The notes under the pieces are model-generated. The model was not told the DNA's origin and did not search any database. It was given only the letters and a program-made list of their open reading frames with translations. DNA of 64,000 bases, taken from positions 64,001 through 128,000 of IMG/VR virus record IMGVR_UViG_3300021399_000113, one strand, 5' to 3'. Positions 8,011-59,495 of the stretch are shown one piece after another (position 1 is the first letter of the stretch; every line of letters begins with the position of its first letter). Source of the stretch: a virus. Its lineage: Duplodnaviria > Caudoviricetes. The position numbers and the translations under genes were made by a program.

Positions 8011-8054
8011 CTTGCACGTAACTGTGCTAAACCTTATTTTTATTCAATATAAAA

Positions 8055-8097
8055 GCATCTATCGTTTTAGTGTACTATTGCGGTAGGTGTTTTTTTT
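8055..8097 (+). terminator. intrinsic terminator ending the tRNA array
   Basis: GCATCTATCG/CGGTAGGTGT hairpin followed by a T run. Confidence 0.75.
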
Positions 8098-8155
8098 CTA
8101 TTGACAAATCCACTAAATTGGTATATAATGTATCTATACGTGGAGGAATGAAAAA

Positions 8156-8473
8156 ATGAGATATAATTTTAAGAGTGATAAGCAAGAGAGACAGGTTTCC
8201 ATTATCTTTGGGGTGTTATTAGCCCTTGCATTTGTTTTCTGCATCTGGTATAATGCCACAGATGATGCAAGAACATTTAATTCCCATGAGTGGGAAACAG
8301 AGTGTATAAGAGTAGGTAGTGGTGATACTTATTGGGGAATCGCCACAGATTATTGCCCTATGGATATGGATAGACGTTACTACATACAGAAGGTTAAGGA
8401 ACTCAATGATACCACCTCTGATTATTTAATCAGTGGTGAGCATATCATGGTTTATGTTTTAAAGGAAGAGTAA
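8156..8473 (+). CDS. membrane-anchored LysM-domain protein (YneA-like)
   Basis: N-terminal TM segment; VGSGDTYWGIA...IQKVKELN...LISGEHI; promoter 8101-8129. Confidence 0.75.
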   Translation: MRYNFKSDKQERQVSIIFGVLLALAFVFCIWYNATDDARTFNSHEWETECIRVGSGDTYWGIATDYCPMDMDRRYYIQKVKELNDTTSDYLISGEHIMVYVLKEE

Positions 8474-9199: not shown

Positions 9200-9214
9200 A
9201 CTGTTGGAGGTACT

Positions 9215-10519
9215 ATGGATTTACTATTAAAGATTGCAAACAGAATACAAGAATGTGGTGGAGAAATTTTCTATGTTGGTGGATATGTCAGAGACAAGAT
9301 TATCGGAAAGCCCAATAAGGACATTGATGTAGAAATCTACAATATCACACCAGATGACCTTAAATCCATCTTGGCTGAATTCGGTGAGGTGCAGACTATT
9401 GGTAAATCCTTTGGTATCTACAACATTAAAGGGTTGGATATTGATTTTGCTCTTCCTCGTACAGAAACAGCTACTGGTAGAGGGCATAAGGATTTTGAAG
9501 TATTTGTTGACCCATTCATCGACAAGAAGACCGCTTGCTCAAGAAGAGATTTTACCATGAATGCTCTGATGGAGAATGTAAATACTGGTGAAGTTTTAGA
9601 TTTCTTTGGTGGCAGAGAAGATATTAATAATAAAATAATTAGGCACGTTTCTGATGAAACTTTCAGTGAAGACCCCTTAAGAGTATTAAGGGCTTGTCAG
9701 TTTTCATCAAGATTCGGATTTGAAATTGCTGAAGAAACAAAGGAACTTGCACGTAAAGCTGACCTTACAGCACTTCCTTCTGAGCGTATCTTTGAGGAAA
9801 TTAAAAAGGCGCTTACTAAATCAAAAAAGCCCTCAATCTTTTTTAATGCGCTAAAGGAAATGGGGTATGAATATTTATTCCCAGAGTTATACAGACTTGA
9901 CAGAATTGAACAGTCTGCTGATTATCATCCAGAGGGAAATGTATATGTACATACAATGTGTGTACTTGATAGCCTTGCAGAACTTGGTTATCATGATTTA
10001 AAACTTATGTTATCAGCCCTCTGTCATGATATGGGCAAGTATGAGGCACATACATTTGATGGAAAGAAGCATCACTTCTACAACCATGAGAGCGTTGGGT
10101 TGCCTATTGCAGAAGCATTTCTTTCAAGACTTACCAATGAGACAGAAATTCATAAATATGTGCTTGATATGGTTAAGAACCACATGAGGATTCATCAATC
10201 ATTAAAATCTAAAAAGCCAAAGGTGTGGAATAGAATTTTTGATGAATCTATTGCTCCCTCAATGCTTATTGAGTTATCTTTTGCTGATACGCTTAACAAA
10301 GATAAGTATGAGCACCTTAAGGCAATCGAGTGGTATACAAAATACAGTAACCACTGTCAGGATGATAAACAGTTACAGGGTAAAGATTTGGTAGCGTTAG
10401 GATATAAGCCCAGCCCAAGATTTACCGATATTTTGAACTTTGCTCATGGTTTATGGTTGAGCATGACACCTTATGACCAGATAGTTAAAGCAGTTACAAA
10501 GGAATTTCCTATTGACTAA
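9215..10519 (+). CDS. cca: CCA-adding tRNA nucleotidyltransferase with HD domain
   Basis: VGGYVRD, DIDVE, RRDFTMNAL, EDPLRVLRA, HPEG..HT, HDMGK. Confidence 0.92.
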   Translation: MDLLLKIANRIQECGGEIFYVGGYVRDKIIGKPNKDIDVEIYNITPDDLKSILAEFGEVQTIGKSFGIYNIKGLDIDFALPRTETATGRGHKDFEVFVDPFIDKKTACSRRDFTMNALMENVNTGEVLDFFGGREDINNKIIRHVSDETFSEDPLRVLRACQFSSRFGFEIAEETKELARKADLTALPSERIFEEIKKALTKSKKPSIFFNALKEMGYEYLFPELYRLDRIEQSADYHPEGNVYVHTMCVLDSLAELGYHDLKLMLSALCHDMGKYEAHTFDGKKHHFYNHESVGLPIAEAFLSRLTNETEIHKYVLDMVKNHMRIHQSLKSKKPKVWNRIFDESIAPSMLIELSFADTLNKDKYEHLKAIEWYTKYSNHCQDDKQLQGKDLVALGYKPSPRFTDILNFAHGLWLSMTPYDQIVKAVTKEFPID

Positions 10520-10560
10520 TTTAACTATTTATGTTATCATAAGATATGTGGAGGAATATT

Positions 10561-11544
10561 ATGTTAGATATTAACTTTTTGAATGAAAAAGAATACGACT
10601 TTCTCCGAACAGATAAACGTTTAGGTGATAACGTACATATTTTAGCATTTGGTGGTTCTCATGCTTATGGTACAAATGTGCCCACCAGTGATATTGATGT
10701 GCGTGGAATAGCCTCAAATTCTATTGATGATGTTATTCTCAATAAAGGATTTGAAGAGATTACTGATAACACAACAGATACTGTTATTTATTCTGTTGAG
10801 AAGATGTTTAGACTTCTTGCACAGTGTAACCCTAATACCATTGAAATCGTTGGTGTAAAGGACTACCTTAAAGTTGATGAAATCGGAAAGATGATTCTTG
10901 ATAACAAGAGTATCTTCCTTTCCAATGCTTGCACAAGAACATTTGGTGGATATGCTACACAGCAGTTATATCGTTTAAGACAGAAAACACTCAATGCGCT
11001 TGAAGAAGATGAACTTGAGCGTCATATCGCTAAGGTTTTAAATGAGATGGATAAATACATCAAAGAGAACTTTGGCATCTCGGATTATAGGGTTTACTAT
11101 GACACAGAGCTTAAAATTGATATGCCAGCCGTTAAAGGATTTCCAATGGAAAAACTTTATGATTATCTTAATACTCTCAACTGTGTGGTTAGGGATTATC
11201 ATAAGCGCTCTGTCAGAAATGAAAAGGCTATTGCCCATAACAAGATTAACAAACATGCTATGCATCTTCTCAGACTGTTTATGATGGAAGAAGATTTACT
11301 GCTTAGGGGTGAGGTAATCACCTATCGAGAGAAAGAGCATGACTTGCTTATGGCAATTAGAAATGGAGAGTTTTACGATACTGAAAGTGGACAGATGACA
11401 GCAGAATTCTTCAAATTGTTAGAGGATTATGAGAAGAGAGTTGAATATGCAAAAGAGCACTCAATTCTCCCTAACAAGCCTAACATGAAAGCCATTGATA
11501 AGTTACAGTTGGATATTTTCAATAAAAGGTTGGAGATGAGATGA
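10561..11544 (+). CDS. RlaP-like Pol-beta-family nucleotidyltransferase
   Basis: GGSHAYGTN..SDIDVRG, NPNTIE, KHAMHLLRL, LMAIRNG. Confidence 0.85.
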   Translation: MLDINFLNEKEYDFLRTDKRLGDNVHILAFGGSHAYGTNVPTSDIDVRGIASNSIDDVILNKGFEEITDNTTDTVIYSVEKMFRLLAQCNPNTIEIVGVKDYLKVDEIGKMILDNKSIFLSNACTRTFGGYATQQLYRLRQKTLNALEEDELERHIAKVLNEMDKYIKENFGISDYRVYYDTELKIDMPAVKGFPMEKLYDYLNTLNCVVRDYHKRSVRNEKAIAHNKINKHAMHLLRLFMMEEDLLLRGEVITYREKEHDLLMAIRNGEFYDTESGQMTAEFFKLLEDYEKRVEYAKEHSILPNKPNMKAIDKLQLDIFNKRLEMR

Positions 11545-13418: not shown

Positions 13419-14636
13419 TTGGAACTGTACAAGCAAGGTGAACATTATACTTTATATAATGGCAGTATGTTGGAACTTAATAATGTAATAGCGGATAACA
13501 GCATTGATAGTATTGTCTGTGACCCACCTTATGAATTAGGGTTTATGGGAAAATCTTGGGACAGTTCTGGAATTGCCTTTAATCCAGATACTTGGAAAAT
13601 TTGCTATAATGCTCTGAAAAGCGGTGGGTACTTATTAGCATTTGGTGGAAGTAGAACATATCATAGGATTGCTTGCGCCATTGAGGATGCTGGATTTGAA
13701 ATAAGAGACACTATTATGTGGATTTATGGTTCAGGGTTTCCAAAATCTATGAATATAGGGCTTGCTATTGATAAAAAGAATGGTGTAGAAAGTAAGATTA
13801 AAGCACAGAATGAATGGGATGGCTGGGGGACAACGTTAAAACCAGCATTTGAACCTATAATAGTAGCAAGAAAGCCGTGTGAGGGCAGTACCACAGATAA
13901 TGTTCTAAAATATGGTGTGGGTGGTATCAATATTGATGAGTGCAGAATCCCAACAACGGACTATTTATATAATCATGGTAATTCTAAAGGCACTATTAAC
14001 AGTTTTTCTGTCGGTAATTTCAAGAAGGCAATTAAAGGAGAAAATGCAAGCACTGAACTTGGTAGATTTCCCGCTAACTTAATCCTCACATATGATGAGT
14101 CTGATTATGATGAAGTGTGTGGTGGATTTCCTGTTGGTGGTAACGCTGTGTATGATAAGTATAATGGGGTTAAACCTTTTGAGGCTTATGATGACGAAGG
14201 CTCTGCATCTCGATATTTCTACTGTGCTAAAGCAAGCAAGCGAGATAGAGATGAAGGGCTGGATAGCTTTCCAACACAAACAAAAGTCTTCAATGGAAAG
14301 TCTGATATGAGTTCAAAAGATATAAAGGACGTTGAGAAGCGGTTCACGACAGAGGGCAAGAACGTACATCCCACAGTCAAGCCAACTGACCTTATGGAGT
14401 ACCTTGTGAGATTAGTGACACCTAAAGGTGGAACTGTTCTTGACCCGTTTAATGGGAGTGGTAGCACTGGCAAAGCCGTATTATATGAAAACCTTGACAG
14501 AGATAAAGATTATAAATATATTGGTATTGAGTTAGAGAGAGAGTACTGTGGAATCAGTGTGGCAAGGCTTGATTATGTCGAACAGCTATTAAAACAGCCC
14601 AAGCAACTTTCTCTCTTTGATACATTGACAACTTAA
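13419..14636 (+). CDS. N4-C/N6-A DNA methyltransferase, beta class
   Basis: DPPY near the N-terminus; HPTVKP and DPFNGSGSTG near the C-terminus. Confidence 0.92.
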   Translation: MELYKQGEHYTLYNGSMLELNNVIADNSIDSIVCDPPYELGFMGKSWDSSGIAFNPDTWKICYNALKSGGYLLAFGGSRTYHRIACAIEDAGFEIRDTIMWIYGSGFPKSMNIGLAIDKKNGVESKIKAQNEWDGWGTTLKPAFEPIIVARKPCEGSTTDNVLKYGVGGINIDECRIPTTDYLYNHGNSKGTINSFSVGNFKKAIKGENASTELGRFPANLILTYDESDYDEVCGGFPVGGNAVYDKYNGVKPFEAYDDEGSASRYFYCAKASKRDRDEGLDSFPTQTKVFNGKSDMSSKDIKDVEKRFTTEGKNVHPTVKPTDLMEYLVRLVTPKGGTVLDPFNGSGSTGKAVLYENLDRDKDYKYIGIELEREYCGISVARLDYVEQLLKQPKQLSLFDTLTT

Positions 14637-14687
14637 TCATTGTATGATATAATATATTCATAATCAAGATAACGAGGTGAATGAACA

Positions 14688-15128
14688 ATGAGAGATGCTA
14701 TGATGCATGAGTATGGTGTTAGAAAGCCTTACATTGAGAACTTAAATCTTTTCAAAACAGTCTTGCACAATAAGATTGCCAATAGTTTTTTAAAGGATTA
14801 TGTAGATATAAAGATTACCGATAAGGGAAATGTAATTGTAAATTTCAAACCTTTTACTATTGACCTATCAAAAGATGACTACTACGACAGCAGAAAACAG
14901 CAGATAAATGCTTGCAAGCTGGTATATGTCCTTAATGATATTGACTTTGAATGGCTGTTTGAAAATGCCATTCCGCAAGAAGATGAATTAAGAGATGATG
15001 AAATCAGTCAATTGTATGAGGAATTTGATGACTATCTTGACGAGGCATACAAGGTTGAGTTTGGTTATCAGAATAGTGTGGCTGACCAGATAATTAAAAA
15101 TTTCTATATATACTATGGGGATGAATAA
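14688..15128 (+). CDS. hypothetical protein
   Basis: own promoter (14624-14652), RBS, terminator at 15127-15156. Confidence 0.75.
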   Translation: MRDAMMHEYGVRKPYIENLNLFKTVLHNKIANSFLKDYVDIKITDKGNVIVNFKPFTIDLSKDDYYDSRKQQINACKLVYVLNDIDFEWLFENAIPQEDELRDDEISQLYEEFDDYLDEAYKVEFGYQNSVADQIIKNFYIYYGDE

Positions 15129-15224
15129 AAGAGAACTTAGGTTCTCTTTTTTTTTTGCTATTGACAAATTTATTGTTATGTGCTATTATATTATCACAAA
15201 GAAAATTTATTGGAGGTAAATATT

Positions 15225-15764
15225 ATGAACTCAACAGAAATTGACCAGCGAATTAGTGAGATTGAAAATTCTTTGAAAAGCCTTAATGGGCAAATAGAGA
15301 AATTGAAGAAAATCAAGGAAGAATTGAAGATGGAACAGGAACGTCTTGATGGTAAACCCTCGATGGGTGAGTTTTACTATTCTATTGATGAAACTGGTTG
15401 TATCAGTGAAAATGTCTGGGGATGTAATCATTGGAATGACAATGATAGATTTAATATAGGAAATGCATTTAAGACATTTGAAGACGCTGAATTTGAGCTT
15501 GAGCGTAGAAAGGTTTATGCACAACTCCGCAGACTGTCTGACACATCTATGGAGAAAGTTGGTAGCAGAAAGAGTCCAGATATTGAAAAGTATACGATTA
15601 TTGCTAATTTAGGCTATACTGGGGGTATAAAGGGCAAAATATACACTTACTTTAATAATACGGATATTGATACAGACATATTTTTTAGCACAGATGCAGA
15701 CGCTGAGAGCGCCATTAAAACAATAGGGGAAGATAGACTTCTGAAATATTATTTTAGATTTTAG
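15225..15764 (+). CDS. conserved phage hypothetical protein with N-terminal coiled coil
   Basis: GGAGG RBS; GNAFKT..DAE motif. Confidence 0.75.
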   Translation: MNSTEIDQRISEIENSLKSLNGQIEKLKKIKEELKMEQERLDGKPSMGEFYYSIDETGCISENVWGCNHWNDNDRFNIGNAFKTFEDAEFELERRKVYAQLRRLSDTSMEKVGSRKSPDIEKYTIIANLGYTGGIKGKIYTYFNNTDIDTDIFFSTDADAESAIKTIGEDRLLKYYFRF

Positions 15765-17288
15765 GAGGTAAGTAAAATGGAGATTATCGACAACTCAAAT
15801 TACAAACAGTTGGGTGAACTTGAAACTGGAAGTCTCTTTGAAATTGATGGAGCAATTTATCTTTTAACCGATAATTATGAAGATAAATTTGGTGGTGGAG
15901 ATAAGTGGGAATGCATCTCCCTTTCTCATACCTGTGGTTCATCCTACTACTTTGACGATAAGACACTTGTTGTTCCTCGTACTGGTAAACTTATTCTTGT
16001 GTGAGGTGGATAATGGAAGAATTATTAAAAGAGGCTGATAACCTTTTGGAAATGTTTTGTGATGGATTTTCTGATATGCCTTGTGGGTGTGAGGGATGCC
16101 CAATGTTTACAGGAGAAGAAGAAGAGGGGGTGTGACCTTGCAACATTTCGTAAACAGCTTAAAGAGAAAGAGGTAAAAGGAGCATAACAAATGAGCAATA
16201 TTATAATTATGATAATTATTTTAATGATTATTAGAGTGAGTGTGATAATCATTCTTGATGCCGATGGAGACCACATTGCCGATGGAGACCACATTAGTGA
16301 ATTTACTAAAGGATATAACAACGGATATAAGAAAGGCAAATACGATGGATATATTGATGGGAAAGACATGGTTCTCCAGCTTATCGACCTTGGGCTGGAC
16401 AAAAGAAAAGCGATTTTCAACACTGACAGCGTACAGGAAATTCTGAAGACTTTTGATGTGTTTACTATTAGAAATATGCTTGAAGCTAATAAAGAGTTAA
16501 GAGTTGGAGATATAGTAACGTTCACAAGTAGTAACACACTGTCTGGAAACGCGGTCACCAATAGTGGGGTAATTACAGCTATTGATGAAGGTGCTCACTA
16601 TATAACAACAAAGACTGGATATATTTATGTCGTTTATGCAAGCAAAATACTACGTGTAACGGGTCACTTAACGCAAACTGAGGAATTTTTACGTGCGTTA
16701 GATTCTGCTATTACACATAAGGAGGATGAAAAATGAGTATTGCTAAAGTAAATTTTCCACCATCTGAGGTTACATCAAAAGAGACACAGATATGGAATGA
16801 TGGATATTCTGCTGGGTATTCAGATTGTGAAAATGATGGCAAAGGGGTCATACTTGACCTCCTACATCTTGGAGCAGTAGGAAGGCAGAAAATGTTTCAT
16901 ACTGCTTCTATAATATCAATTCTGCATGACCTAACATTTGCTGAGATTTCAGAGGCAATTAAAAAGCGGGAAACCCCACCAGAAGTTGGAGATGTGGTGT
17001 GTCTTGTAGAGCATTATACAGCATTAAATGAAGACAAAGCAGTGCGTGGTGTAGTTGTTGGAATCGAAGGAAACCATGAAATCTATTACATTGTAGGTAA
17101 TAATGGTAAAACTTACACACGAAATGTTGAAGATATAGCTCGCCTTAAGTGTTCCTTAAAATCGACAGTAGATGGATTTCTTTTTACTGTTGAACAAAAC
17201 ACAAGAAAAGAAGACATTTAGTTAGATAGAATATATATTGACAATTATTATTTTTCATGCTATACTATCATCATCGGAGGTAGATAGC

Positions 17289-41433: not shown

Positions 41434-41754
41434 ATGGCAAGAGTAAGAAAATCAGATTTATGGCAAGATGTTTATGACGCAGTTCTTAAGGGTAGAGAGT
41501 TTTCTGCAAATGATGTTGGTATTGATTATGATAACAATATTATTTGTTACTGTAAGGACGATAAGGCTCTTGAAAAAGCAAAGGCAGTTGCAGAAAAGTT
41601 TGGTCTTAAGACCAGCGCAGTAAAAGAGCGCATGATTACTGTGAAGTCAGAAAAGAAGACATCCGCTGATAAGAAAGATGATAAGAAGAAATCAGAGGAT
41701 GAAAATAAAATGTATAAAGTCATAACACTTTATCTTCCAAAATCTTCAGATTGA
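41434..41754 (+). CDS. hypothetical protein
   Basis: AAGGAG RBS; promoter-like TTGACA at 41375. Confidence 0.7.
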   Translation: MARVRKSDLWQDVYDAVLKGREFSANDVGIDYDNNIICYCKDDKALEKAKAVAEKFGLKTSAVKERMITVKSEKKTSADKKDDKKKSEDENKMYKVITLYLPKSSD

Positions 41755-41832
41755 ATTAAATAAATTAATTGTATAGATAAGAGGATAAACAAATTTATCC
41801 TCTTATTTTGGTAATAAAGGAGTTATAATAAA

Positions 41833-42963
41833 ATGTCGATTGTATATAATAGAACTGTTTGGCAGAACTATGTATCGGCTCTTTCAGAAACACCCCTTAA
41901 CAATATAGAATTAGGTATTACTGAGGTTGTTAATGTACTTAATACGTTGGGAATTCAGCCATCACATATAGACTTTATTGAAAGTCTTATGCAAGGTGTG
42001 GGTAATTCATCTACTCCAATGTACATTGCAAGTGATGGAACACCACAAGAAGTTGGGCAAATCAGCGTTGCACATGGTGGTACTGGTCTTAACACATTAG
42101 CATCTGGTAAGTTGCTTGTCGGTAATGGAACTAATGCAGTTAATTTTAGAGAGATTCAAAATGAAACTGGTGGGGCAGTTCCAATTACTGAGTCTGTGAA
42201 AATTCCAACTGCAAATACTATTAAAAGATGGAATGGTGCTCATGATTCAAATAACAATTCTAATCTTGAGTATGTTAAGTTGGGAAAACTTGGAGACGCT
42301 TGTATTAAGGCTGTATCGACACAAGGTGTTAACAATGATGGAGATAATCTTGTCACAGAGGCACAAGTTAAAGCGTTTGTTGAGGGTAAAGGATATATCA
42401 CAGCGTATGTCGATACAAAGAATACTGCTGGAGCATTAAATAAAAATTCAACAAAGTTATATCTTGTTGGAGCAGAATCACAAACAGCAAATCCACAGAC
42501 ATCTACAAATTCCAAGAACTATGTGGGAACAGATGGTCATTTATATTCTAACGAGAAACAAGTTGTAAATGTATCAGATACACAAACAGTATCTAATAAA
42601 ACATTTACTAACAATACTTATGAAGGATATTCGTTAGGAGATGCTTGTGCTAAAGGTGTAGACAGTACTGATGGTGGAACTGCTGGCTCTAATGCTCTTA
42701 TAACATCTGGAGCAGTTAACTCATTAAAACAACAGACAATTACAAGCATTTCTTTTCCATCAGCGGGTGTTTGTAGAGTTGTTCAGAATGGTCAATCATC
42801 TGATTTACCATTTTCTACATCAGCACAAGCTACATATATTGGTAGTACTGCCCCAAGTAATACACAGTTGGTGTGGATAGATAGTGCTAATGGGTACATA
42901 CTTAAGGTTTATGATAGTACACAGCAACGCTGGATTACACCGAGAGCAGTATGGGGTAACTAA
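41833..42963 (+). CDS. tail-fibre-like structural protein
   Basis: VAHGGTG, LLVGNGT, YIGSTAP...VWID motifs; G/S/T/N-rich. Confidence 0.65.
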   Translation: MSIVYNRTVWQNYVSALSETPLNNIELGITEVVNVLNTLGIQPSHIDFIESLMQGVGNSSTPMYIASDGTPQEVGQISVAHGGTGLNTLASGKLLVGNGTNAVNFREIQNETGGAVPITESVKIPTANTIKRWNGAHDSNNNSNLEYVKLGKLGDACIKAVSTQGVNNDGDNLVTEAQVKAFVEGKGYITAYVDTKNTAGALNKNSTKLYLVGAESQTANPQTSTNSKNYVGTDGHLYSNEKQVVNVSDTQTVSNKTFTNNTYEGYSLGDACAKGVDSTDGGTAGSNALITSGAVNSLKQQTITSISFPSAGVCRVVQNGQSSDLPFSTSAQATYIGSTAPSNTQLVWIDSANGYILKVYDSTQQRWITPRAVWGN

Positions 42964-42966
42964 TAA

Positions 42967-44340
42967 ATGATTACAGCAGATGAATTAATTCAATTAAGAG
43001 AAAAAGTAAAAAATGAAATAGATAGACGATGTTCATTCAATGGATATGGTAGAAATCTGCTTAACCCTTCTCTGTATGAATGGGGAACAGAAGGACAGCC
43101 AGTTCAAGGTGGAATGGTCTATGGTTCACAAGGTAAGACTGTAGTTGATTCATTATTAACAATTGCAGATATAGGTAATTTACGAAATGTTCAGCCCAAT
43201 GAGCCAATCCCAGATTCTTTTGATAATGATACATTAAGTGGAATTGTAGATTTATTAGCAGAAGAAGGACAGCATGATGAAAACTCATCTTGTCGTGGAG
43301 CATGTACAGGACTTTGTGTGGGTACATGTGCTGGTGATTGTACGAGTGGGTGCGTGAGTGACTGTACGGGGGGTTGTGGCTCAACGTGTACTGGTACTTG
43401 TGGTGGAGATTGTACAGGTGCTTGTAGTGGTGTATGTACATCTTGTTCATCTGAGTGTGTAGATTCATGTATAGATGGATGCACATCTACTTGTGGAAGT
43501 GAGTGCAGTGGACATTGCGGAAATAGCTGTACGGGAGGATGTGGTACTACTTGTACAGGAAATTGTGCATCTACTTGTAGTGCAAGTTGCAGTGGTGGCT
43601 GTTCCGCTTCATGTGGTGGCTGTAGTGGCTGTGATGGCTGTAGTGGCTGTGGCAGTGGCTGTGATAGAGGATGTAGCGGTTGCAGTGGTGGCTGTTATGG
43701 TTGCGGTGGCTGTGGCAGTAGCTGTGATGGCTGTAGTGGCGGTTGCTATGGGGCGACAGGGGACACAACGTGTGGTTCTTCTTGTTCAGCCGAGTGTGCG
43801 GGCTGCCAAGGAGGCTGTGCTGGCGACTGTGATGGCAGTTGCTATTGGTCTTGCGGTGGTTGCAGTGGTGGTTGCACAGGTAGGTGTACAGGCTGTAGCA
43901 GTTGCAGTGGTGGTTGTGATGGTTGCGGTGACTGTGATGGCAGTTGTAGCGGTTGCAGTAGCTGTAGTGGATGTAGTGGATGTAGCGGTAGCTGTGATGG
44001 GTGTTCATCGGGATGTAAAACATCTTGTTCTGTAACTTGTGGTAGTAACTGCACATCTTGTAGCGCAGTTTGTGCTAATAACTGTGGAACAGATTGTGCT
44101 GGGTCATGTTCTAATGTTTGTACACAATCTTGTGGTGGTGGTTGTCAAGGAACTTGTTCTAATGGCTGTGATAGCGGTTGTAATCTTTGTACAAGTGCTT
44201 GTACTACCTCTTGTACAAGTTGTAATGCAACGTGTGAAAATTCTTGTATGACCACTTGTGAAAGTACTTGCTACTCCAATTGTACAAGCGGATGTTATGG
44301 TGGTGCAACAGGTACAGTGATTGGTCCTGTTATCGGCTGA
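42967..44340 (+). CDS. giant CxxxC/CxxC-repeat protein, putative radical-SAM modification target
   Basis: 108-aa leader then about 89 Cys at 3-4 residue spacing; next to the maturase. Confidence 0.85.
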
Positions 44341-44424
44341 CAAAACACAGAATATGTTGTATAATAGATACGTAGAAATAGAAACTGACAAATTAAATTT
44401 TTGATTTAAGGAGAAACACACATA

Positions 44425-44763
44425 ATGTTTACAAAAGTAATTATTATTGATAGTGAAGTAAGAGATTACATTGAGCGACTTGGACATGAGGTTGATGGAG
44501 CAAAAGAACTTATTGCTTACATGATTGATAGTGGAAGAGATATTAAAACAGATACTTTTAAGGAATATCATGATGAGTACGCCAAAGCCTTAGCCGCTTA
44601 TAATATTGCAAAAGAAGAGCTGGAAAATAAGTATATTCCAAAGGCACTGCTTGGCAGAAATGCAGGTACAGAATGGGAACTCAAGTTTGAAACAGCGGAA
44701 CTTACCATTACAAATAACGGTAAGACGATTACAGAGGAAGAGTTTAATTCATTTTTTAATTAA
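44425..44763 (+). CDS. CXXX-repeat modification system accessory protein
   Basis: small helical protein ending WELKFET.ELTI, between target and maturase. Confidence 0.65.
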   Translation: MFTKVIIIDSEVRDYIERLGHEVDGAKELIAYMIDSGRDIKTDTFKEYHDEYAKALAAYNIAKEELENKYIPKALLGRNAGTEWELKFETAELTITNNGKTITEEEFNSFFN

Positions 44764-44830
44764 TATTTAATTTAACCTTCATTCCTAACTTGAATTAAAT
44801 CGAGTTAGGAATGATTTTACTGGAGATAGA

Positions 44831-47296
44831 ATGTCAAGGAACAGAAAGAAATTTGAACAATATCAAGATTTAATTGCAAGGTTATATCCCGAATTAACTA
44901 AACATAATAGTAGTGATGACCAGTCTCACGGAGCAGAAAGAGTGCTGACAAGGACTGTCACTCTACAGGTGACTGACAAGTGCAATCTTGCTTGTAGTTA
45001 TTGCTACCAAATAAATAAGGGAGTAAGAAGAATGTCGCTTGAAACTGCAAAGAAGTTCATTGACCTGCTTCTTACAGGAGAAAAAGGTTTTAGCAATTAT
45101 GTTGACCCGTCATTCTCTCCTGCAATCGTTCTTGAATTTATCGGTGGTGAACCTTTTCTTGAAATAGAGTTAATTGACAAGGTTTGTGATTATTTCGTAG
45201 ATAAAGCAATTGAATTAAGGCATCCTTGGGCAAAGAATTTTAGATTTAGTATCTGTTCGAATGGAGTTCTCTATAGAGACCCAAAGGTACAGAAGTTCTT
45301 AAACAAGTGGAAGAATAAATTATCATTCTCTATAACAATAGATGGTGACAAAGAATTACATGACACTTGCCGAGTATTCCCAGATGGGAGTCCTTCTTAT
45401 GACATTGCCATAGAGGGTGCTAAGGATTGGATGGCAAAAGGAAATTATATGGGAAGTAAGATTACTATTGCTCCGCAAAATCTTCATTGTTTCAGTAGAG
45501 CACTTAAGCATATGATTTCTTTAGGGTATGATGAGATTAATTGTAACTGTGTTTATGAGGATGTATGGAAACCCGAACATGGGAAACAGTTATATGACCA
45601 ATTAAAGGAAACAGCAGATTATCTTTTAGATAATAATTTAGAAAAAGATATATATGTATCTATTTTAGCAGAAGATAATTTTCATCCAAAGGATGTGAAT
45701 GATTTACAGACTTGGTGTTGGGGAAAAGGCACACCAATTTTAACCACGAAAGGATATAAACCAATAGAGGATATAGCGGTTGGTGATGAGGTATATACTC
45801 CGCAGGGGCATATTAAACCTGTCATTAATGTTATGAGTCATGTAGCTGATAATTGTGTGGAGATTAGCGGTTGTGGTATTCTGCCTATGATATGCACTAA
45901 AGACCATAGATTGTGGGCTTCTCCGTTTGATTATCGGGGTTGGAAAAATACCCCTCATTATAAACCTTTTGGTGCTTACAGCATTGAAGAAATCATTGAT
46001 ACAAAATATCCTACTCGAAGTAGAATTAAGACAGGTGTATTGCCTAATAATCGTACAGTTCATGTAGACCCTAATGTAGCTTACTTACTTGGTCGTACAA
46101 TAGGTGATGGTTGGGTAGCCGATGATATACCCGCTGTATGTTGTGGCAAAGATGAACTGTCCGAAGTGATAAAATGTTTCAATGATGCTAAAATTGCATA
46201 TCGTATTTCAGAGTCAAATACCACATATGATTTTTATGCAACAAAAAAACTTAATATGGGTAACGATAATTATGCTCTTTATAGTAAGTTATGTTTAGAT
46301 ATGGGGCACAAATCAGTAAATAAACACATTCCTTCCGAGTGCTTTAATTGGGATGATGAATCCCTTGAGGCATTATTACAAGGTTATGTGAGTGCAGATG
46401 GGCACATTAGAGCAAATCGAAATATATATGTCATTAAAACTTCATCAAAAAGACTTGCAGAAGATGTTATGTTAGTGTGCCGTACACTTGGATATAACCC
46501 TATGTGTGATACCCCTCAACGGGTTAACGGGAAAACCGAAACAATTATGGGTCGGTTGACGCACAGAAATGGGGACGTATTTACGGTGCGTTGGAGTTTC
46601 GAAAAGCACAATGGTAAATTCTACTATGAGGATGAAGACGGGATGTTTACATCTAAACTTCGGGTTGTGTCAGCACCCACTCAAGCTGTGTATAACATAA
46701 CAGTAGCCGATGACCATTCCTACATTGCGGGTTCACTTGCCTCTAAAAATTGTGGGGGACTTGGTGACATGCTTGCCTGTGACCCCGATGGTAAATTATT
46801 CCCTTGTATTAGATATATGGAAAGTTCATTAGGGAACACTGTCCCTCCTGTTATTATTGGAGATGTCGATAATGGTGTGTGCCAAAGACCGCACGAACAG
46901 AAGTTACTCTGTGATATGTGTGCGGTCAATAGACGTACATATAATACAGATGAATGTTTCTATTGCCCTATTTATCAAGGGTGTGCAGAATGCTCCGCTT
47001 ATAACTATCAGTTAAGTGGTGGAGATTTCAACAAACGTGCAACGTGTATCTGCATTACACATAAAGCAAGATGCTTAGCAAATGCTTACTATTGGTCAAA
47101 ATTTTACGAAAAGAACGAACCTCAGAGCAAATTTAAGTTTTATATACCAGACGAGTGGGCATTACAAGTTATTGACAAAGATGAATTAGATATGATAAAA
47201 TCATTACCGAACATAGAGCTTTGTCAAACAACATGGCAAGAATTGAGGGACAAAGACTTAAATGGTGAAGATAAGCAAAAAGAAGAAGTTCAGTAA
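44831..47296 (+). CDS. radical SAM/SPASM peptide maturase (CXXX-repeat target family) with intein
   Basis: CNLACSYC, FIGGEPF, SITIDG..HD.CR; SPASM CGG..DG.LFPC..CFYC..GC.EC. Confidence 0.92.
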   Translation: MSRNRKKFEQYQDLIARLYPELTKHNSSDDQSHGAERVLTRTVTLQVTDKCNLACSYCYQINKGVRRMSLETAKKFIDLLLTGEKGFSNYVDPSFSPAIVLEFIGGEPFLEIELIDKVCDYFVDKAIELRHPWAKNFRFSICSNGVLYRDPKVQKFLNKWKNKLSFSITIDGDKELHDTCRVFPDGSPSYDIAIEGAKDWMAKGNYMGSKITIAPQNLHCFSRALKHMISLGYDEINCNCVYEDVWKPEHGKQLYDQLKETADYLLDNNLEKDIYVSILAEDNFHPKDVNDLQTWCWGKGTPILTTKGYKPIEDIAVGDEVYTPQGHIKPVINVMSHVADNCVEISGCGILPMICTKDHRLWASPFDYRGWKNTPHYKPFGAYSIEEIIDTKYPTRSRIKTGVLPNNRTVHVDPNVAYLLGRTIGDGWVADDIPAVCCGKDELSEVIKCFNDAKIAYRISESNTTYDFYATKKLNMGNDNYALYSKLCLDMGHKSVNKHIPSECFNWDDESLEALLQGYVSADGHIRANRNIYVIKTSSKRLAEDVMLVCRTLGYNPMCDTPQRVNGKTETIMGRLTHRNGDVFTVRWSFEKHNGKFYYEDEDGMFTSKLRVVSAPTQAVYNITVADDHSYIAGSLASKNCGGLGDMLACDPDGKLFPCIRYMESSLGNTVPPVIIGDVDNGVCQRPHEQKLLCDMCAVNRRTYNTDECFYCPIYQGCAECSAYNYQLSGGDFNKRATCICITHKARCLANAYYWSKFYEKNEPQSKFKFYIPDEWALQVIDKDELDMIKSLPNIELCQTTWQELRDKDLNGEDKQKEEVQ
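45716..46750 (+). mobile_element. intein with LAGLIDADG endonuclease in the radical SAM gene (aa 296-640)
   Basis: starts CWGKGTPILT, ends ASKN before Cys; LLGRTIGDG and LLQGYVSADG. Confidence 0.9.
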
Positions 47297-47492
47297 TTTC
47301 ATAGTAATACTTGCAATAGTTTCTATTATAGCATATACTGCTGTGTGTTTAGCAATACTGCTTACTGGTGGAAGTTTAGAGGGGGTTGAATCCCTTACTG
47401 AAAATTGGTATAATTTCTGGACAACAGAAGTGTTTGCACTTGCTTGTATTAAAACGTTTAAAGTAATAAGAAAGAGTGACGATGATGAATAG
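47262..47492 (+). CDS. small membrane protein (holin-like)
   Basis: basic N-terminus and TM segments. Confidence 0.6.
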   Translation: MVKISKKKKFSNFIVILAIVSIIAYTAVCLAILLTGGSLEGVESLTENWYNFWTTEVFALACIKTFKVIRKSDDDE

Positions 47493-53451: not shown

Positions 53452-56400
53452 ATGATAAATATAAATACTGAACAATTTAATAATTTATCGGCAGAAGAAC
53501 AAAAAGAAGTCGTTAAGATATTAAACGAGTATGCAGAAAAAGGTGCTTCAGTAACATTCGATAATCTTTTATATGAGGATTATAAAGAAATACCAGTAGA
53601 TATAGAAACCTTTATTACAGATGATAGATATTTAGGTAAGGCTTGGAAAGATACTGAGAACCATATAAAGTTGTACCCATTCTGGCTTGAACAACTTAAA
53701 AAGTTATTTCCAACTAATCTTGATACCGCATACAACACTCTGCTTGAAAGCGGAGCAAGGGGAATTGGTAAAGCACAACCTTTATATTCTAAATTACTCA
53801 CTCCAAATGGCTTCATTACAATGAAAGATGTCACTGTTGGCAGTTTGGTTTATGGGGAAGATGGTAAGCCCCATAAGGTTACTCATATCTTTCCACAAGG
53901 GGAGAAAGATGTGTATGAGGTTAGGTTTAGTGATAACTCTACAACACGTTGCTGTAAAGAGCATTTATGGACAGTTATTCAAAAATATAACCATAATAGA
54001 GAAACCACAATTACCCTTGAAGATATTATGAATAGAGGGCTTAGGACTAATCCAACTAAGCATGGATGGACTGCTTGTAGATTTGGAATTCCTATAACTG
54101 CCCCAGTTGAGTTTGAGCATAGGGATGTGTTTATATCTCCTTATACCCTTGGAGTACTTATTGGTGATGGTCATATTTGTGGTGGAAACACTTGCTTTAC
54201 TTCAATCGACTCAGAGATTGTTGATAGGGTGACCTCTGAAATACTTCCTAATGGATATGTTTTATCAAGGTATGAAGACTCTTATAGTATTGTAAATGCT
54301 GATAAATCCCATAAAGGGAAGATAAATAATGACAATAAATATAAACAAGCTATTCATGATTTAAAACTTGATGTGAAGTCTTATGAGAAGTTTATACCAG
54401 AAGATTATTTATTAACTGATGTAAACAGTCGTATTCAATTATTACAGGGGTTAATGGACACTGATGGCTATGTGACAAAGGGTGGCTATTTAGTTTATTA
54501 TACTACAAGTGAGAGACTAAGAGATGACTTTATTTTCTTAGTTCAATCGTTAGGTGGTACTGCTCCTTGCAGAATTAAAAAGGGTAAATATAAAAATACT
54601 AATGGAGAAGTTGTTGAGTGTAGGGACTGTTATGAAATAACTGTAAATTTACCTTCATCAATCTCACCTTGTTCATTAACCAGAAAACTTATTAGATTAA
54701 ATAATAATAAAAAAGAACCATTTAGAACTATACATGAAATTACCTATGTAGGAAAAGAAGAGTGTCAGTGCATATTGATAGATAGTGATAAGCACTTGTA
54801 TCTAACTGATAATCTTATAGTGACTCATAACTCTGAGGTCGCCTGTGGCTGTGCAATGGCATATCTTATGTATAGAGTAATGTGCCTTAAAAATCCTCTT
54901 GAGTTTTATCATCTAAAACCAACAGAAAAAATTGTGTTCGCATTTATGAATATTAAGAAAGAGTTGTCAAAAGAAATTGCCATAAGTAAATTTCAGAAAA
55001 CAATTCAGTTATCTCCTTGGTTTATGGCAAGGGGCACTATGACACAATTTGAAAATGCACCCTATTGGAATCCTCCAAGTGACATTAGTATTGTTATTGG
55101 TTCACAGTCAGATGACGTTATTGGTCAGCCAATATTCTGTGCGTTTTTCGATGAAATATCCTTTGTGCGCAATCAAGATATAGATAAGCAGAAAAAGAAA
55201 GCACTTGATATGATTGACACTGCTCTTGGTGGTATGCGAACAAGATTTATTCACGAAGGTAAAAATCCTACCCTTTTGATTGTTGCATCATCAAAGAGAA
55301 GCGAACAGTCTTTCATGGAATCATATATTAAGACTAAATCAGAGACTGAAGGTAACTCTACTCTTGTCGTAGATAAGCCAGTTTGGGAAGTAAAACCACA
55401 AGGTACATATAAGCCAATTACCTTTAAAGTCGGATTAGGTAATAAGTTCCTTGAGAGTGTTGTTATTCCAGATGGAGCAGATGTTTGGGAATATAAATCC
55501 AAGGGATACACCATTATAGATGTTCCCATTGATTTTAAAGCAACGTTTATAGAAAATATAAATAGAGCTTTATGTGACTATGCTGGTATATCTTCTTTCT
55601 CAGCCAATAAATATTTCTCTGGCGAAGTTGTTGCTGAGAATATATTAGATTTTATCCATAATGCAATGCCAGAACTTATTACAGTAGGCAATATGGATAA
55701 AGTACAATATAAAGATTACTTTGATATGACCAAAATACCAAGTGAATATAAATATAAACCTTTGTATATACATTTGGATATGTCTGTATCTGGAGATACT
55801 ACTGGTATCTGTGGTACTTGGATTATAGGTAAGAAACCAACTACTGAAGGTGATGCTGGAAAAGATTTATTATTCAGACTTGCTTTTGGATTTGCGGTAA
55901 GAGCACCAAAAGGACAGCAAATCTCATTTGAGAAGAACAGAAACTTTATCAGATGGTTAAGGGAGCAAGGTTTTAATATTGGAGAAATATCAGCCGATAC
56001 ATTCCAGTCCTATGATTTATTACAGATATTACAGAGTGAGGGATTTAATACCACCATTCTTTCAGTGGATAGAGTTGACCCAGAAAGTCACATCTGTAAA
56101 CCATATCAATTCTTACGCTCAACAGTGTATGAACATAGGTTACAGATGTTTAAATGTGATAGATTATTTGATGAGTTTGTAGAAGTTGAAAGAAATAACA
56201 GCACAGGTAAAATTGACCACCCTACTGGCGGTAGAAAGGACTTACTTGATGCTGTGTGTGGTTCAGTGTTTACTGCATCATCTCATGCAGAAGAGTACGC
56301 ATATAATTTCGGAGAAGATTTGGATTTAGCTATTCAAACTAATACAGCTAATCCAATGATAACTCAACAACAGATACAAATGAATTTGGATGATATTCTT

Positions 56401-56520
56401 AAATCAATAAGACAAAGACAAGACGCAGTAAATAAACAAGTAGAAACAACAGTAGGCATAAATAGCCGCAATCTTGCCAATGACTTATACTTAACAAGTC
56501 AAGGTATTGTTGCGATATAG
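53452..56520 (+). CDS. terL: terminase large subunit with intein
   Basis: Walker A GARGIGK|S, Walker B FFDEI, nuclease HLDMS..GD, KIDHP..G.KD..DAV. Confidence 0.92.
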   Translation: MININTEQFNNLSAEEQKEVVKILNEYAEKGASVTFDNLLYEDYKEIPVDIETFITDDRYLGKAWKDTENHIKLYPFWLEQLKKLFPTNLDTAYNTLLESGARGIGKAQPLYSKLLTPNGFITMKDVTVGSLVYGEDGKPHKVTHIFPQGEKDVYEVRFSDNSTTRCCKEHLWTVIQKYNHNRETTITLEDIMNRGLRTNPTKHGWTACRFGIPITAPVEFEHRDVFISPYTLGVLIGDGHICGGNTCFTSIDSEIVDRVTSEILPNGYVLSRYEDSYSIVNADKSHKGKINNDNKYKQAIHDLKLDVKSYEKFIPEDYLLTDVNSRIQLLQGLMDTDGYVTKGGYLVYYTTSERLRDDFIFLVQSLGGTAPCRIKKGKYKNTNGEVVECRDCYEITVNLPSSISPCSLTRKLIRLNNNKKEPFRTIHEITYVGKEECQCILIDSDKHLYLTDNLIVTHNSEVACGCAMAYLMYRVMCLKNPLEFYHLKPTEKIVFAFMNIKKELSKEIAISKFQKTIQLSPWFMARGTMTQFENAPYWNPPSDISIVIGSQSDDVIGQPIFCAFFDEISFVRNQDIDKQKKKALDMIDTALGGMRTRFIHEGKNPTLLIVASSKRSEQSFMESYIKTKSETEGNSTLVVDKPVWEVKPQGTYKPITFKVGLGNKFLESVVIPDGADVWEYKSKGYTIIDVPIDFKATFIENINRALCDYAGISSFSANKYFSGEVVAENILDFIHNAMPELITVGNMDKVQYKDYFDMTKIPSEYKYKPLYIHLDMSVSGDTTGICGTWIIGKKPTTEGDAGKDLLFRLAFGFAVRAPKGQQISFEKNRNFIRWLREQGFNIGEISADTFQSYDLLQILQSEGFNTTILSVDRVDPESHICKPYQFLRSTVYEHRLQMFKCDRLFDEFVEVERNNSTGKIDHPTGGRKDLLDAVCGSVFTASSHAEEYAYNFGEDLDLAIQTNTANPMITQQQIQMNLDDILKSIRQRQDAVNKQVETTVGINSRNLANDLYLTSQGIVAI
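53773..54831 (+). mobile_element. class 3-type intein (Ala1) with LAGLIDADG endonuclease in the terminase P-loop (aa 108-460)
   Basis: AQPLYSK...HLW...CQCI...VTHN|S; LGVLIGDG, LQGLMDTDG. Confidence 0.92.
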
Positions 56521-57605: not shown

Positions 57606-59495
57606 TTGGAAGATAATAATGTATTTGAAATAGAAAAGGGCACATATAATAGAGAAACAGTTTCAGTTCCAAAGCCACAACCTAAAACTGGTATGGACAC
57701 TGATGGAGCATTCTATGATAATATTATATCGGCTGGCTTAACAAACCAACTTGATACAAGTGAGATTGATAGATTCTCCACATTATCAGAACGTAGAAAT
57801 CAAATCTATAAAATGTTTGATGCTATGGGAGAAGATTCAAGAGTGTCTGCTGTATTAGACACATATGCTGAGGATGCTACTGAGCCAAGTGATACTGGTA
57901 GAATCATGTGGTGTGAATCAGATGATGCTGATGTGGCAAAACTCATTACGTTCTATCTTGATAGCATGAACGTAGATAAGAACTGTTTTAAGTGGGCACA
58001 CGCACTCTGTAAATATGGTGATGTTTATTTAAGACTTTATAGAGAGTCAGATGAAGATGACCATTTATTTAACAAAGAGGATATTGACGCAAGAGAGTCA
58101 GTAAACGAGAATAGGAAGTCAACTCTTACAGAGGCAATTAAGATAAGAGCCTATAAGAAAACGGATAACTATACTCATTATGTTGAGATGAAAGAAAACC
58201 CAGCAGAAATGTTTGAGCTGAGTAAGTTCGGTAAGACTTATGGATTTATCCAAGCAGATGTAGAGCGTGTTACAGACGACAACTCACCGATTATGTACCA
58301 AGAATATTATAGATATAAGTTTAACCAAAAAGATATAAACATCTTTGAGGCAACTGAATGGGTGCATGGTATGTTGGAAGATAATTCTTCTCGTAACCCA
58401 GAAGAAGTTACAATCTTTTTATCTGACAATCTGGAAGACGAGAAGAAGTATACCTATAAAGTTAAGAGAGGTCAATCTTTACTGTATCACGCATTTAAGA
58501 TTTGGAGAGAGCTAACACTACTTGAGAACTCTCTTATGCTTAATCGTGTTACCAAATCTTCAGTGTTAAGAGTAATCAGTTCAGAAGTTAAGGATATGCC
58601 AAAAGAGAATGTCATTCCTCACCTTCAGTCCATTAAGAACATGGTAGAGCAAAAGACAGCTCTTAATACAAATCAATCTATGTCTGAATATACAAATCCA
58701 GCACCAATGGAGAATACCATTTATGTATCAACAAGAAATGGTGTAGGTGCATTAACTGCATCACAGATTGGTGGAGATGTTGATATAAAATCCATAGCGG
58801 ACATTGAGTATTTCTTAAATGCTTTGTTTGGAACATTACGTGTACCTAAACAGTATTTTGGATATGTAGATGATAATGGTGGATTTAGTGGTGGTCAATC
58901 ACTCTCTATTATTTCATCTCGTTATGCTAAGTTAGTAAAGCGTATTCAGAATGCACTTATACAAATGGTAACAGATGCAGTCAACCTCATGTTAATTGAC
59001 GTAGGGTTAGACGCATATATTAATAAATACACATTAAAGATGCAAGCACCTACAACACAAGAAGAGATTGATAGACGTGATAACACATCTGGAAAGGTAC
59101 AGCTTGTATCAGATATTATGAATATGTTATCTGATATAGAAAGCCCAGTTGTTAAATTAACAATTCTTAAAACTTTACTTGCAGATGTTGTAAATGAGCC
59201 AGAAGTAATTAGTCTTATTCAAGAAGAGATTGATAGACTTGAACAAGAGGGTGCAACCGAAGGTGAATCCGAAGAGGGTAATAATGACTTTGGTGGAGAA
59301 TCTACTGGCTTAGGTGGTGGTGGATTTGATAGAAGCACACCAATGGATTTAAATGATGAAGCAACTGATTTTGGTGGAGACATAGAGGACAATGAAACCT
59401 CTGATACAGAAGAGCCAGAAAAGGGTGCTGAAGAAACTGTATTACCATCACCAAGTGATTTAGGTGTTGACTTTACTAATGATAATGAACAGTAA
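57606..59495 (+). CDS. portal protein (T4 gp20-like), TTG start
   Basis: LCKYGD, W.EL.LLE.S....R, DIEYF...LF..LRVPK, RYAK.VKRIQ; acidic tail. Confidence 0.9.
   Translation: MEDNNVFEIEKGTYNRETVSVPKPQPKTGMDTDGAFYDNIISAGLTNQLDTSEIDRFSTLSERRNQIYKMFDAMGEDSRVSAVLDTYAEDATEPSDTGRIMWCESDDADVAKLITFYLDSMNVDKNCFKWAHALCKYGDVYLRLYRESDEDDHLFNKEDIDARESVNENRKSTLTEAIKIRAYKKTDNYTHYVEMKENPAEMFELSKFGKTYGFIQADVERVTDDNSPIMYQEYYRYKFNQKDINIFEATEWVHGMLEDNSSRNPEEVTIFLSDNLEDEKKYTYKVKRGQSLLYHAFKIWRELTLLENSLMLNRVTKSSVLRVISSEVKDMPKENVIPHLQSIKNMVEQKTALNTNQSMSEYTNPAPMENTIYVSTRNGVGALTASQIGGDVDIKSIADIEYFLNALFGTLRVPKQYFGYVDDNGGFSGGQSLSIISSRYAKLVKRIQNALIQMVTDAVNLMLIDVGLDAYINKYTLKMQAPTTQEEIDRRDNTSGKVQLVSDIMNMLSDIESPVVKLTILKTLLADVVNEPEVISLIQEEIDRLEQEGATEGESEEGNNDFGGESTGLGGGGFDRSTPMDLNDEATDFGGDIEDNETSDTEEPEKGAEETVLPSPSDLGVDFTNDNEQ

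Follow-up and report, generated by a model that had tools for sequence, protein, structure and literature searches.

A candidate tail-fibre-linked cassette encoding a giant cysteine-ladder protein and a CXXX-repeat-type radical SAM maturase in a Caudoviricetes virus

RESULTS

Gene content of the cassette

The DNA analysed here, referred to as the window, comprises 64,000 nucleotides (bases 64001-128000) of the 138.6-kb linear IMG/VR virus record IMGVR_UViG_3300021399_000113 (Duplodnaviria; Caudoviricetes), which CheckV estimated to be 83% complete. The virus is a large phage whose hosts are probably gut-type anaerobes. All genes in the window lie on the + strand. A cassette at window positions 41833-47296 contains four co-oriented open reading frames (ORFs), which we call FIB, CYS, ACC and rSAM, in that order:

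41833-42963, + strand: FIB, fibre-like protein of 376 aa (ORF list; weak match to PHROG 31660)
42967-44340, + strand: CYS, Cys-ladder protein of 457 aa (ORF list)
44425-44763, + strand: ACC, helper of 112 aa (ORF list)
44831-47296, + strand: rSAM, radical S-adenosylmethionine (SAM)/SPASM enzyme with an intein, 821 aa (ORF list, TIGR04115)

The ATG of CYS lies 3 nt past the stop codon of FIB. The ORFs bear out the layout given in a first-pass annotation of the sequence, in which a fibre-like gene was followed 3 nt later by a target protein, an accessory protein and a radical SAM/SPASM enzyme. That annotation had also seen no adjacent transporter or leader peptidase, and family scans of the ten neighbouring ORFs likewise found no transporter or peptidase family. 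Alternative-frame ORFs within the CYS repeat (43475-44035 on the + strand, 43571-44056 on the - strand, and others) were discarded as by-products of the repeat.

rSAM belongs to the CXXX-repeat maturase family and carries an intein

A comparison with the hidden Markov models (HMMs) of the CXXX-repeat system, a check suggested by the first-pass annotation, placed rSAM above the cut-off of TIGR04115, 'radical SAM peptide maturase, CXXX-repeat target family' (437.2 bits; cut-off 350). The match fell into two stretches with the intein between them, and intein-less relatives scored 472-507 bits. The next-best NCBIfam model, PapB (NF047865), gave 166.4 bits against a cut-off of 340, and the SCIFF maturase model TIGR03974 (CteB type) 91.9 bits against 425; other Cys-peptide maturase models also matched rSAM, well under their own cut-offs. 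The radical SAM motif CxxxCxxC is present as CNLACSYC at residues 51-58. The closest solved structure was CteB (5WGG, E 1.3e-21). The alignment begins at CteB residue 83, and rSAM therefore lacks the fused N-terminal recognition domain of CteB; its predicted absence fits a helper that acts in trans.

The rSAM gene is divided as follows:

44831-45715, + strand: N-extein, residues 1-295 (TIGR04115 positions 1-255)
45716-46750, + strand: LAGLIDADG-type intein of 345 aa, residues 296-640 (Pfam, alignment gap)
46751-47296, + strand: C-extein, SPASM-type Cys-rich region and tail (TIGR04115 positions 248-359, invariant Cys columns)

Alignment with seven intein-less relatives showed an exact 345-residue insertion after W295 (NW/CGG, the slash marking the site), directly before the invariant Cys that opens the SPASM part. 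The insertion matched the Pfam families Hint_2 (29.9 bits; cut-off 28.4) and LAGLIDADG_3 (31.8 bits; cut-off 22.5), and contained Cys296 as Cys1, a TKDH motif, two LAGLIDADG-like motifs and a terminal Asn640 followed by the +1 residue Cys641. The penultimate residue is Lys, not His. The enzyme can be complete only after the predicted splicing of this intein. Inteins in the same gene were also found in the loci L005 and L149. Under translation table 11 the rSAM gene is in 2-4 well-conserved pieces in L055, L058-L061, L066, L109, L122 and L147, for which stop-codon recoding, introns or assembly errors are possible explanations.

CYS consists of a conserved helical domain and an 89-Cys core

CYS can be divided into three parts:

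42967-43290, + strand: helical domain, residues 1-108, followed by an invariant 11-residue junction (alignment, AlphaFold2)
43291-44295, + strand: Cys-ladder core, residues 109-443, 89 Cys (spacing count)
44296-44340, + strand: C-terminal tail, in the family cap C(F/Y/W)G.A(T/K) (alignment)

Of the 90 Cys of the protein, 89 lie in the core and the other is residue 22. The 88 core spacings comprise 64 CxxxC, 23 CxxC and one gap of 9 residues, so that the CxxxC/CxxC register of about 89 Cys noted at first sight holds for 87 of these 88 spacings. Because the core is 27% Cys and the frame is kept in >100 loci, this register is far from chance. Spacer positions are mostly G, S or T, and Gly or Ser precedes most Cys. 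The flanks of the core are CxxxC-rich and conserved, its centre CxxC-rich and variable. Short tandem repeats at the DNA level are confined to this centre (43612-43746 and 43907-43988), and the local GC content of up to 0.42 is explained by the composition of CYS. The protein terminates in GCYGGATG plus 9 residues, and the C-terminal end of the repeat is conserved in the family as C.(S/T)TC(Y/F)S.C..(Q/G)C(F/Y/W)G.A. Of the two modules proposed in the first-pass annotation, ending in GCYGATG and GCYGGATG, the terminal one coincides with this cap; at the internal GCYGATG the conserved C-terminal cap is incomplete. The middle of the repeat is variable in length, with 11-145 Cys per protein, and homologous targets are 170-650 aa long with up to 145 Cys.

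Residues 1-108 had been taken for a leader. We rejected an unstructured leader because these residues form a conserved domain that is predicted to fold. In an alignment of 44 diverse sequences they are conserved, with the invariant junction at their end. AlphaFold2 predicted three helices (residues 4-25, 53-66 and 87-99) with a mean predicted local distance difference test (pLDDT) value of 77.7 and a predicted template modelling score of 0.71. The model gave no informative fold match (Foldseek against the PDB, best E 5; VIA wide, best Z 5.0). A word-index protein search with CYS residues 1-110 returned no match, and an exhaustive profile search of 1.84 billion proteins found the domain in 691 representative clusters, 410 of them at E <=1e-10, nearly always at the N-terminus of proteins of 81-543 aa.

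CYS had no match in the Pfam copy or in an NCBIfam hmmscan, and its best stretch against the repeat model TIGR04114 reached 17 bits (cut-off 20). Its only PHROG match was to PHROG 6085, of unknown function (E 5.9e-7). The closest Atlas clusters to the core are mostly viral, contain PF27846 in 13-69% of their members and are named after that family, 'Modification target Cys-rich repeat domain'.

ACC is distantly related to the helper of the cellular CXXX-repeat system

ACC homologues adjoin rSAM in all phage-type loci. A single-sequence search left ACC unmatched to TIGR04116 (cut-off 50 bits), and 2 of 54 members of the ACC family matched that model at E 0.004. When the ACC family alignment was compared with five true TIGR04116 proteins using hhalign, however, the two aligned over 76 columns, nearly the full length (probability 82.8%, E 9.3e-6), and a W.(L/I)DF motif was common to both. 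By this profile comparison ACC is distantly related to TIGR04116, 'CXXX repeat peptide modification system protein', although it falls outside the curated threshold of that family. AlphaFold2 modelled ACC with a pLDDT of 94.3 as a strand, a long helical hairpin and two strands (beta-alpha-alpha-beta-beta). The model retrieved no informative fold (PDB, best E 0.5; Z <=7.0, generic helical hairpins).

The CYS-ACC-rSAM trio is conserved in phages and prophages

An IMG/VR scan with the N-extein retrieved 66 loci at 40-65% identity, and a profile scan of one genome per prokaryotic species retrieved 77 loci, almost all from anaerobic Bacillota. The trio, with a giant target and an ACC homologue of ~100-118 aa, was found in nearly all viral loci (about 60 IMG/VR contigs) and in ~45 bacterial loci that we call class A, so that the synteny sought in related phages extends over >100 loci. 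Class A hosts are Clostridia. Because baseplate W/J/I or Dit/Tal homologues lie upstream, class A loci are prophages; cultured strains carrying them include Neglectibacter timonensis SN17, Desnuesiella massiliensis mt10, Eubacterium pyruvativorans i6, Anaerolentibacter hominis CSJ-1 and Anaerobacterium chartisolvens DSM 27016. A second set of ~20 bacterial loci (class B) encodes an rSAM of ~725 aa with a fused TIGR04119 domain, targets of 63-134 aa with 8-19 Cys and a true TIGR04116 helper (59-82 bits), and is accompanied by no phage genes. In a quick maximum-likelihood tree of rSAM, class B formed its own clade on a long branch (100% support in the Shimodaira-Hasegawa-like approximate likelihood-ratio test), and all 50 tail-linked enzymes fell on the other side of the tree. 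The nearest neighbour of the window enzyme was that of an Anaerosporobacter (Lachnospiraceae) prophage, at 66% identity.

Neither megablast of the cassette nor tblastn of CYS and the helical domain gave a match in 50,697 phage records; relatives of rSAM in that collection were limited to two uncultured faecal contigs (37-40% identity). A literature search found no paper on the CXXX-repeat system or its phage form.

In phages of 58-60 kb the repeat is followed by a non-Cys domain of ~130-190 aa, of at least 2 unrelated types, that is fused, split off or deleted among near-identical phages. Such exchangeability is the behaviour expected of receptor-binding tips. The tip domains of L010 and L016 had no match in PHROGs, and the L016 tip and an L010-type tip (P0004) had none in Pfam. 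An extra domain also precedes the helical domain in P0083 and lies inside it in P0123, where the insert matched CBM_4_9 weakly (E 4.6e-4, below the cut-off).

In L009-L068 (IMG/VR sample 3300045988), a poly-G run (4-9 G) lies at the junction between Cys core and tip, ~1070 nt into the Cys-rich gene (for example at ~7090 in L024 and ~7260 in L068). The reading frame is kept across the junction in some contigs and lost in others, some tips are cleanly deleted, and three different in-frame nonsense changes occur within 50 nt of it. Either phase-variable tip expression or homopolymer sequencing error could give this pattern. In addition to two CXXX targets with their trio, the 229-kb viral contig L003 encodes, at 13522-15858, a second rSAM (30% identical) and after it a protein of 364 aa whose 81 Cys stand in a D/N-rich CxxxC pattern and whose N-terminus differs. 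In L151, from a Bacillota metagenome-assembled genome with no nearby phage genes, a 917-aa protein (8017-10770) is encoded downstream of a 448-aa TIGR04115-type enzyme. Its N-terminal part has 93 Cys in CxxxC register; two PG_binding_1 domains (E 4e-33) come next, and the membrane end is of the glycine-zipper kind. The protein resembles a Cys-ladder protein of the cell envelope.

Linkage of the target gene to tail-fibre genes and to a C-terminal module

Among direct fibre signals of FIB, 'tail fiber' PHROG 31660 matched at E 1.2e-3 only, Atlas neighbours were phage-fibre families with scores of at most 0.90, which we treat as leads, and no Pfam or NCBIfam family matched. The BLAST likeness of FIB to the proteins encoded upstream of the target in relatives was limited to its last ~45 residues, which correspond to the following module:

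42817-42957, + strand: C-terminal module of FIB, residues 329-375 (HMM, E 4.5e-17)

The module has the consensus ..TAPxN T.LLWIDT.NG..KYYNG..W....A.WG-stop, at the very C-terminus. It matched no Pfam family, and its HMM found a single copy in the 138.6-kb genome, that in FIB. In relatives, tail fibres of PHROG 7037 terminate in this module, to which the last 47 residues of FIB correspond. Among 75 non-redundant targets with enough upstream sequence, the gene directly upstream ended in the module in 56. The proteins that bear it range from 55 to 974 aa and are otherwise unrelated, the ~45-aa module being their only common part. The term 'fibre-like' in the first-pass annotation is thus borne by weak direct matches together with a module common to real tail fibres; the linkage to fibre genes, whose absence from relatives would have spoken against that annotation, was present in these 56 cases.

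The linkage spans unrelated phage types. In L052, whose baseplate is myovirus-like, CYS, ACC and rSAM are preceded, in this order, by genes for the tape measure, a LysM tail protein, another tail protein, baseplate W, J and I and a tail fiber, and are followed by a small ORF and an endolysin gene; the tail fiber upstream of CYS matched PHROG 7037 at E 6.6e-43. In L010, one of the 58-60 kb phages, whose Dit/Tal module is siphovirus-like, the trio comes after genes for the tape measure, Dit, a minor tail protein and a virion structural protein of 792 aa, again in this order. The recurrence of the set behind tail-fibre genes suggests an enzymatically cross-linked tail appendage. A short invariant end beside a constant downstream partner would be expected of an adaptor between two fibre segments, and we propose the C-terminal module of FIB as a putative docking module for CYS. 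A complex prediction with three FIB modules and three CYS helical domains scored 0.09 (mark 0.32), which counts neither for nor against binding.

Expression signals

The following candidate signals were found around the cassette genes:

41769-41775, + strand: TTGTATA motif, candidate phage promoter element, 64 nt upstream of the FIB start, overlapping the next hairpin
41775-41808, + strand: 15-bp hairpin with a U-rich tail (-16.9 kcal/mol, z -3.95, 0/200 shuffles as stable)
44357-44363, + strand: second TTGTATA, 68 nt upstream of ACC, inside the sigma-70-like match CTGACA-17-TATAAT (motif scan)
44779-44814, + strand: terminator-like 15-bp hairpin with a U tract, between ACC and rSAM (-21.6 kcal/mol, z -5.58, 0/200 shuffles as stable)

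The hairpin at 41775-41808 likely terminates the upstream gene at 41434-41754. The hairpin at 44779-44814 could hold transcripts of the enzyme below those of FIB, CYS and ACC. TTGTATA occurs 35 times in the genome, and 13 copies lie at most 100 nt upstream of + strand ORFs, against 4.8 expected (2.7-fold). The aligned copies have an A/T-rich 5' flank and no -35 element. The late promoter proposed earlier for the cassette was not sustained: no sigma-70-like site precedes FIB, and the 13-mer around TTGTATA is unique in its exact form and, counted with two mismatches, not above chance. The enrichment of the 7-mer is what is left of it, as a lead.

Surrounding genes

PHROG matches in the record include a DNA ligase, a Dda-like helicase, a tRNA nucleotidyltransferase, the large terminase (53452-56520) and the portal (57606-59495). 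The terminase ORF encodes 1022 aa, of which terminase PHROGs match residues ~92-527 only; the same ORF also matches helicase-loader and primase PHROGs. PHROG 19299, labelled 'terminase', also matches the intein of rSAM. The large terminase gene may itself carry an intein.

A 76-aa ORF with a hydrophobic segment (47262-47492) overlaps the last 35 nt of the rSAM gene; relatives have a different small ORF (109-117 aa) between rSAM and the lysis genes. A similar MKF(K/R)L.E start was seen in several proteins of unknown function, at 39747, 48753 and 51246 in the window and at 27462 in the genome.

DISCUSSION

A model of an enzyme-modified appendage

The known products of RiPP-type (ribosomally synthesised and post-translationally modified peptide) radical SAM maturases are small secreted peptides, and phage particle proteins are thought to mature via folding, proteolysis or autocatalytic cross-links. 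Starting from the gene anatomy, the family to which the enzyme belongs, the conserved trio and its association with fibre genes, we propose the following process. FIB and CYS would be made together from genes 3 nt apart, and ACC and spliced rSAM would act on the 89-Cys repeat of CYS. The cysteines would most likely be converted into intramolecular Cys-S-to-carbon thioether links, by analogy with CteB and PapB, and small rings at intervals of 3-4 residues would stiffen the chain into a rod that resists proteases and redox changes. The three-helix domain of CYS would serve as a handle that is recognised by the helper and the enzyme, docks onto the C-terminal module of FIB, or both. In relatives the rod would bear the exchangeable non-Cys domains, and together these parts may form the distal end of a fibre that recognises the host.

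We assign a probability of roughly 0.55 to this chain as a whole, that is, to an enzyme-modified, fibre-attached Cys-ladder protein. Its parts differ in strength. That CYS is a substrate of rSAM is highly probable. Thioether formation is the best guess for the chemistry because the nearest characterised relatives, PapB and CteB, form thioethers, and on that analogy we consider it reasonably probable; incorporation of modified CYS into the phage particle has a similar, somewhat better than even chance. The first-pass proposal that RiPP chemistry has been repurposed for a virion appendage keeps part of its footing, in the true TIGR04115 maturase, the conserved trio, the fibre linkage and the lack of adjacent export or protease genes, and has to be revised in that a folded domain takes the place of the leader.

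Relation to known systems

The cellular CXXX-repeat system was defined by comparative genomics and comprises a TIGR04115 radical SAM enzyme, TIGR04114/04117 targets, a TIGR04116 helper and TIGR04119 as a second maturase domain. Like it, the cassette has an enzyme above the TIGR04115 cut-off, a Cys at every fourth residue between small spacers and a ~100-aa helper beside the enzyme. In the cellular loci of Dielma, Tissierella and Ignavibacteria, however, the targets are peptides of 70-134 aa with 13-19 Cys, the helper scores 59-82 bits against TIGR04116 and TIGR04119 is often fused to the enzyme. CYS, in contrast, has 457 aa, 89 core Cys and a helical domain absent from the cellular peptides, and falls below the TIGR04114 cut-off; ACC misses the TIGR04116 model, the enzymes are in a separate clade, and the context is one of tail fibres. 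TIGR04119 had no match in the 138.6-kb record (83% complete), whereas the cellular enzyme of L141 has it at 151 bits. We conclude from these comparisons that the cassette is a tail-fibre-linked, giant-target form of a catalogued, unstudied radical SAM system.

CteB, which acts on the SCIFF peptide, and PapB, which makes the ranthipeptide freyrasin, belong to the same superfamily as rSAM, have the same domain order and act on Cys-rich substrates. These substrates are peptides of ~45-50 residues with about six Cys and defined acceptor residues. rSAM is far under both family cut-offs (425 and 340 bits), and CteB has an extra N-terminal domain of ~80 residues.

A more distant analogue is found in the tail-fibre region of jumbo phages such as Salmonella phage SPN3US (L158, NC_027402), a potential cultured model, where two ORFs of ~133 aa with 20-21 Cys in CxxxC/CxxC register (3058-3456 and 3470-3871) lie between a 'virion structural protein' gene and two radical SAM genes, near fibre-assembly genes. 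They are unannotated or annotated in another frame, a 112-aa coding sequence being placed over the second. Like the window cassette the set is phage-borne, but its enzyme is only ~27% identical, its targets are short and the helical domain has no match there.

Autocatalytic virion maturation is represented by the isopeptide cross-links of the HK97 capsid and by the self-cleaving intramolecular chaperone domains of tail spikes and fibres. Chemical stabilisation is the common idea; here, in contrast, maturation would depend on a dedicated, SAM-consuming, oxygen-sensitive enzyme and a helper, with a Cys ladder of low complexity as the substrate.

Points against a fibre-attached, modified CYS

Several observations weigh against this model. 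Some concern the locus itself: the cassette lies ~6 kb upstream of the terminase and portal genes among unannotated acidic proteins, a PHROG scan did not locate the tail module of the window genome, so that the cassette is outside any identified tail module, and the direct fibre signals of FIB are weak. The 'virion-fibre operon' of the first-pass annotation therefore stands on the fibre linkage seen in relatives and is extended from them to the window. The upstream module is absent for 19 of the 75 targets, and the helical domain was found in no cultured phage of the 50,697-record collection.

Other points concern the target. The helical domain need not be N-terminal, because it follows the repeats in L113, L115, L149 and L119. 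This arrangement suits a leader or follower for maturase recognition no less than it suits a docking domain. Nor are large targets confined to phages, since L151 encodes a cellular one of 917 aa. The repeat core is without a confident predicted structure (Atlas model, pLDDT 0.50). The proposed chemistry lacks an obvious acceptor atom for the thioether, as the residue four after each Cys is another Cys, and 89 SAM-consuming steps per chain would be costly.

Alternative explanations

The alternative that survives best takes CYS for a phage-carried RiPP-like product outside the virion, with the helical domain as a large leader or follower for the maturase. Such a product could be a bacteriocin-like, signalling, metal-scavenging or superinfection-exclusion factor freed at lysis. 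rSAM does belong to a family of peptide maturases whose cellular members act on 70-130-aa peptides, one class of them with a twin-arginine-like signal, and the cellular helper TIGR04116 has a distant relative in ACC; the enzymes of phages and prophages nevertheless form a clade apart from the short-peptide systems, and targets of 170-650 aa with up to 145 Cys are of another order. Like some RiPP recognition sequences, the helical domain may stand before or after the repeats, but the repeats are also fused to exchangeable tip-like domains. The cassette here is outside a recognised tail module; in relatives, on the other hand, the set has a constant slot after tail-fibre genes in unrelated tail modules, with a common C-terminal module upstream, and no protease, transporter or immunity gene was found among the window neighbours. 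On balance we regard a non-virion product as unlikely.

A somewhat weaker candidate is a Cys-rich protein with a structural or adhesive role, in which the cysteines are ligands of metal or Fe-S clusters or are paired in disulfides. The enzyme would then have another role, for example introducing a few site-specific modifications, or CYS itself would supply cluster-like ligands. Strict co-inheritance of the enzyme with the repeats in >100 loci speaks against this explanation, and the best characterised relatives, PapB and CteB, make Cys thioethers. Disulfides inside the cell are also improbable, given that the hosts are strict anaerobes. In favour of this explanation, a core with 27% Cys in CxxC/CxxxC spacing resembles metal-thiolate proteins, no acceptor such as Asp is conserved at a fixed offset, the positions between Cys being mostly G/S/T, and the chemistry of TIGR04115 is undescribed in the literature found.

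Finally, CYS is most improbably an assembly factor or scaffold for the upstream fibre that is absent from the mature particle: the slot just downstream of a fibre gene with a near-overlapping stop and start is usual for fibre chaperones, and the distant analogue in SPN3US lies near a 'tail assembly chaperone' and a DUF4376 gene, but a chaperone has no obvious need for 89 modified Cys, a dedicated enzyme and variable distal domains, and Pfam and PHROG scans revealed no likeness to known chaperone families.

Implications

The target and enzyme families are already in databases (PF27846 clusters and TIGR04115); the details added here are the putative adaptor module, the predicted fold of the helical domain, the kinship of the helper to TIGR04116 and the intein site. 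Going beyond the enzyme-modified, fibre-attached protein proposed above, the tail-fibre part may be a new material: a rod with ~89 thioether rings per chain, docked by the fibre module and the three-helix domain and bearing, in some phages, receptor-binding tips that can be swapped and may be phase-variable. This fuller picture is tentative, and we put it at somewhat less than an even chance.

If this fuller picture is true, CYS would be the first phage structural protein with an enzyme-catalysed radical SAM modification, and would far exceed in size every other substrate of RiPP-type maturases. A dedicated, oxygen-sensitive enzyme acting on a fibre component several hundred residues long would account for a gene set that is widespread but unstudied in gut phages and Clostridia prophages, would point to a new protease- and redox-resistant protein scaffold, and would join the field of RiPP radical SAM enzymes with that of phage particle maturation.

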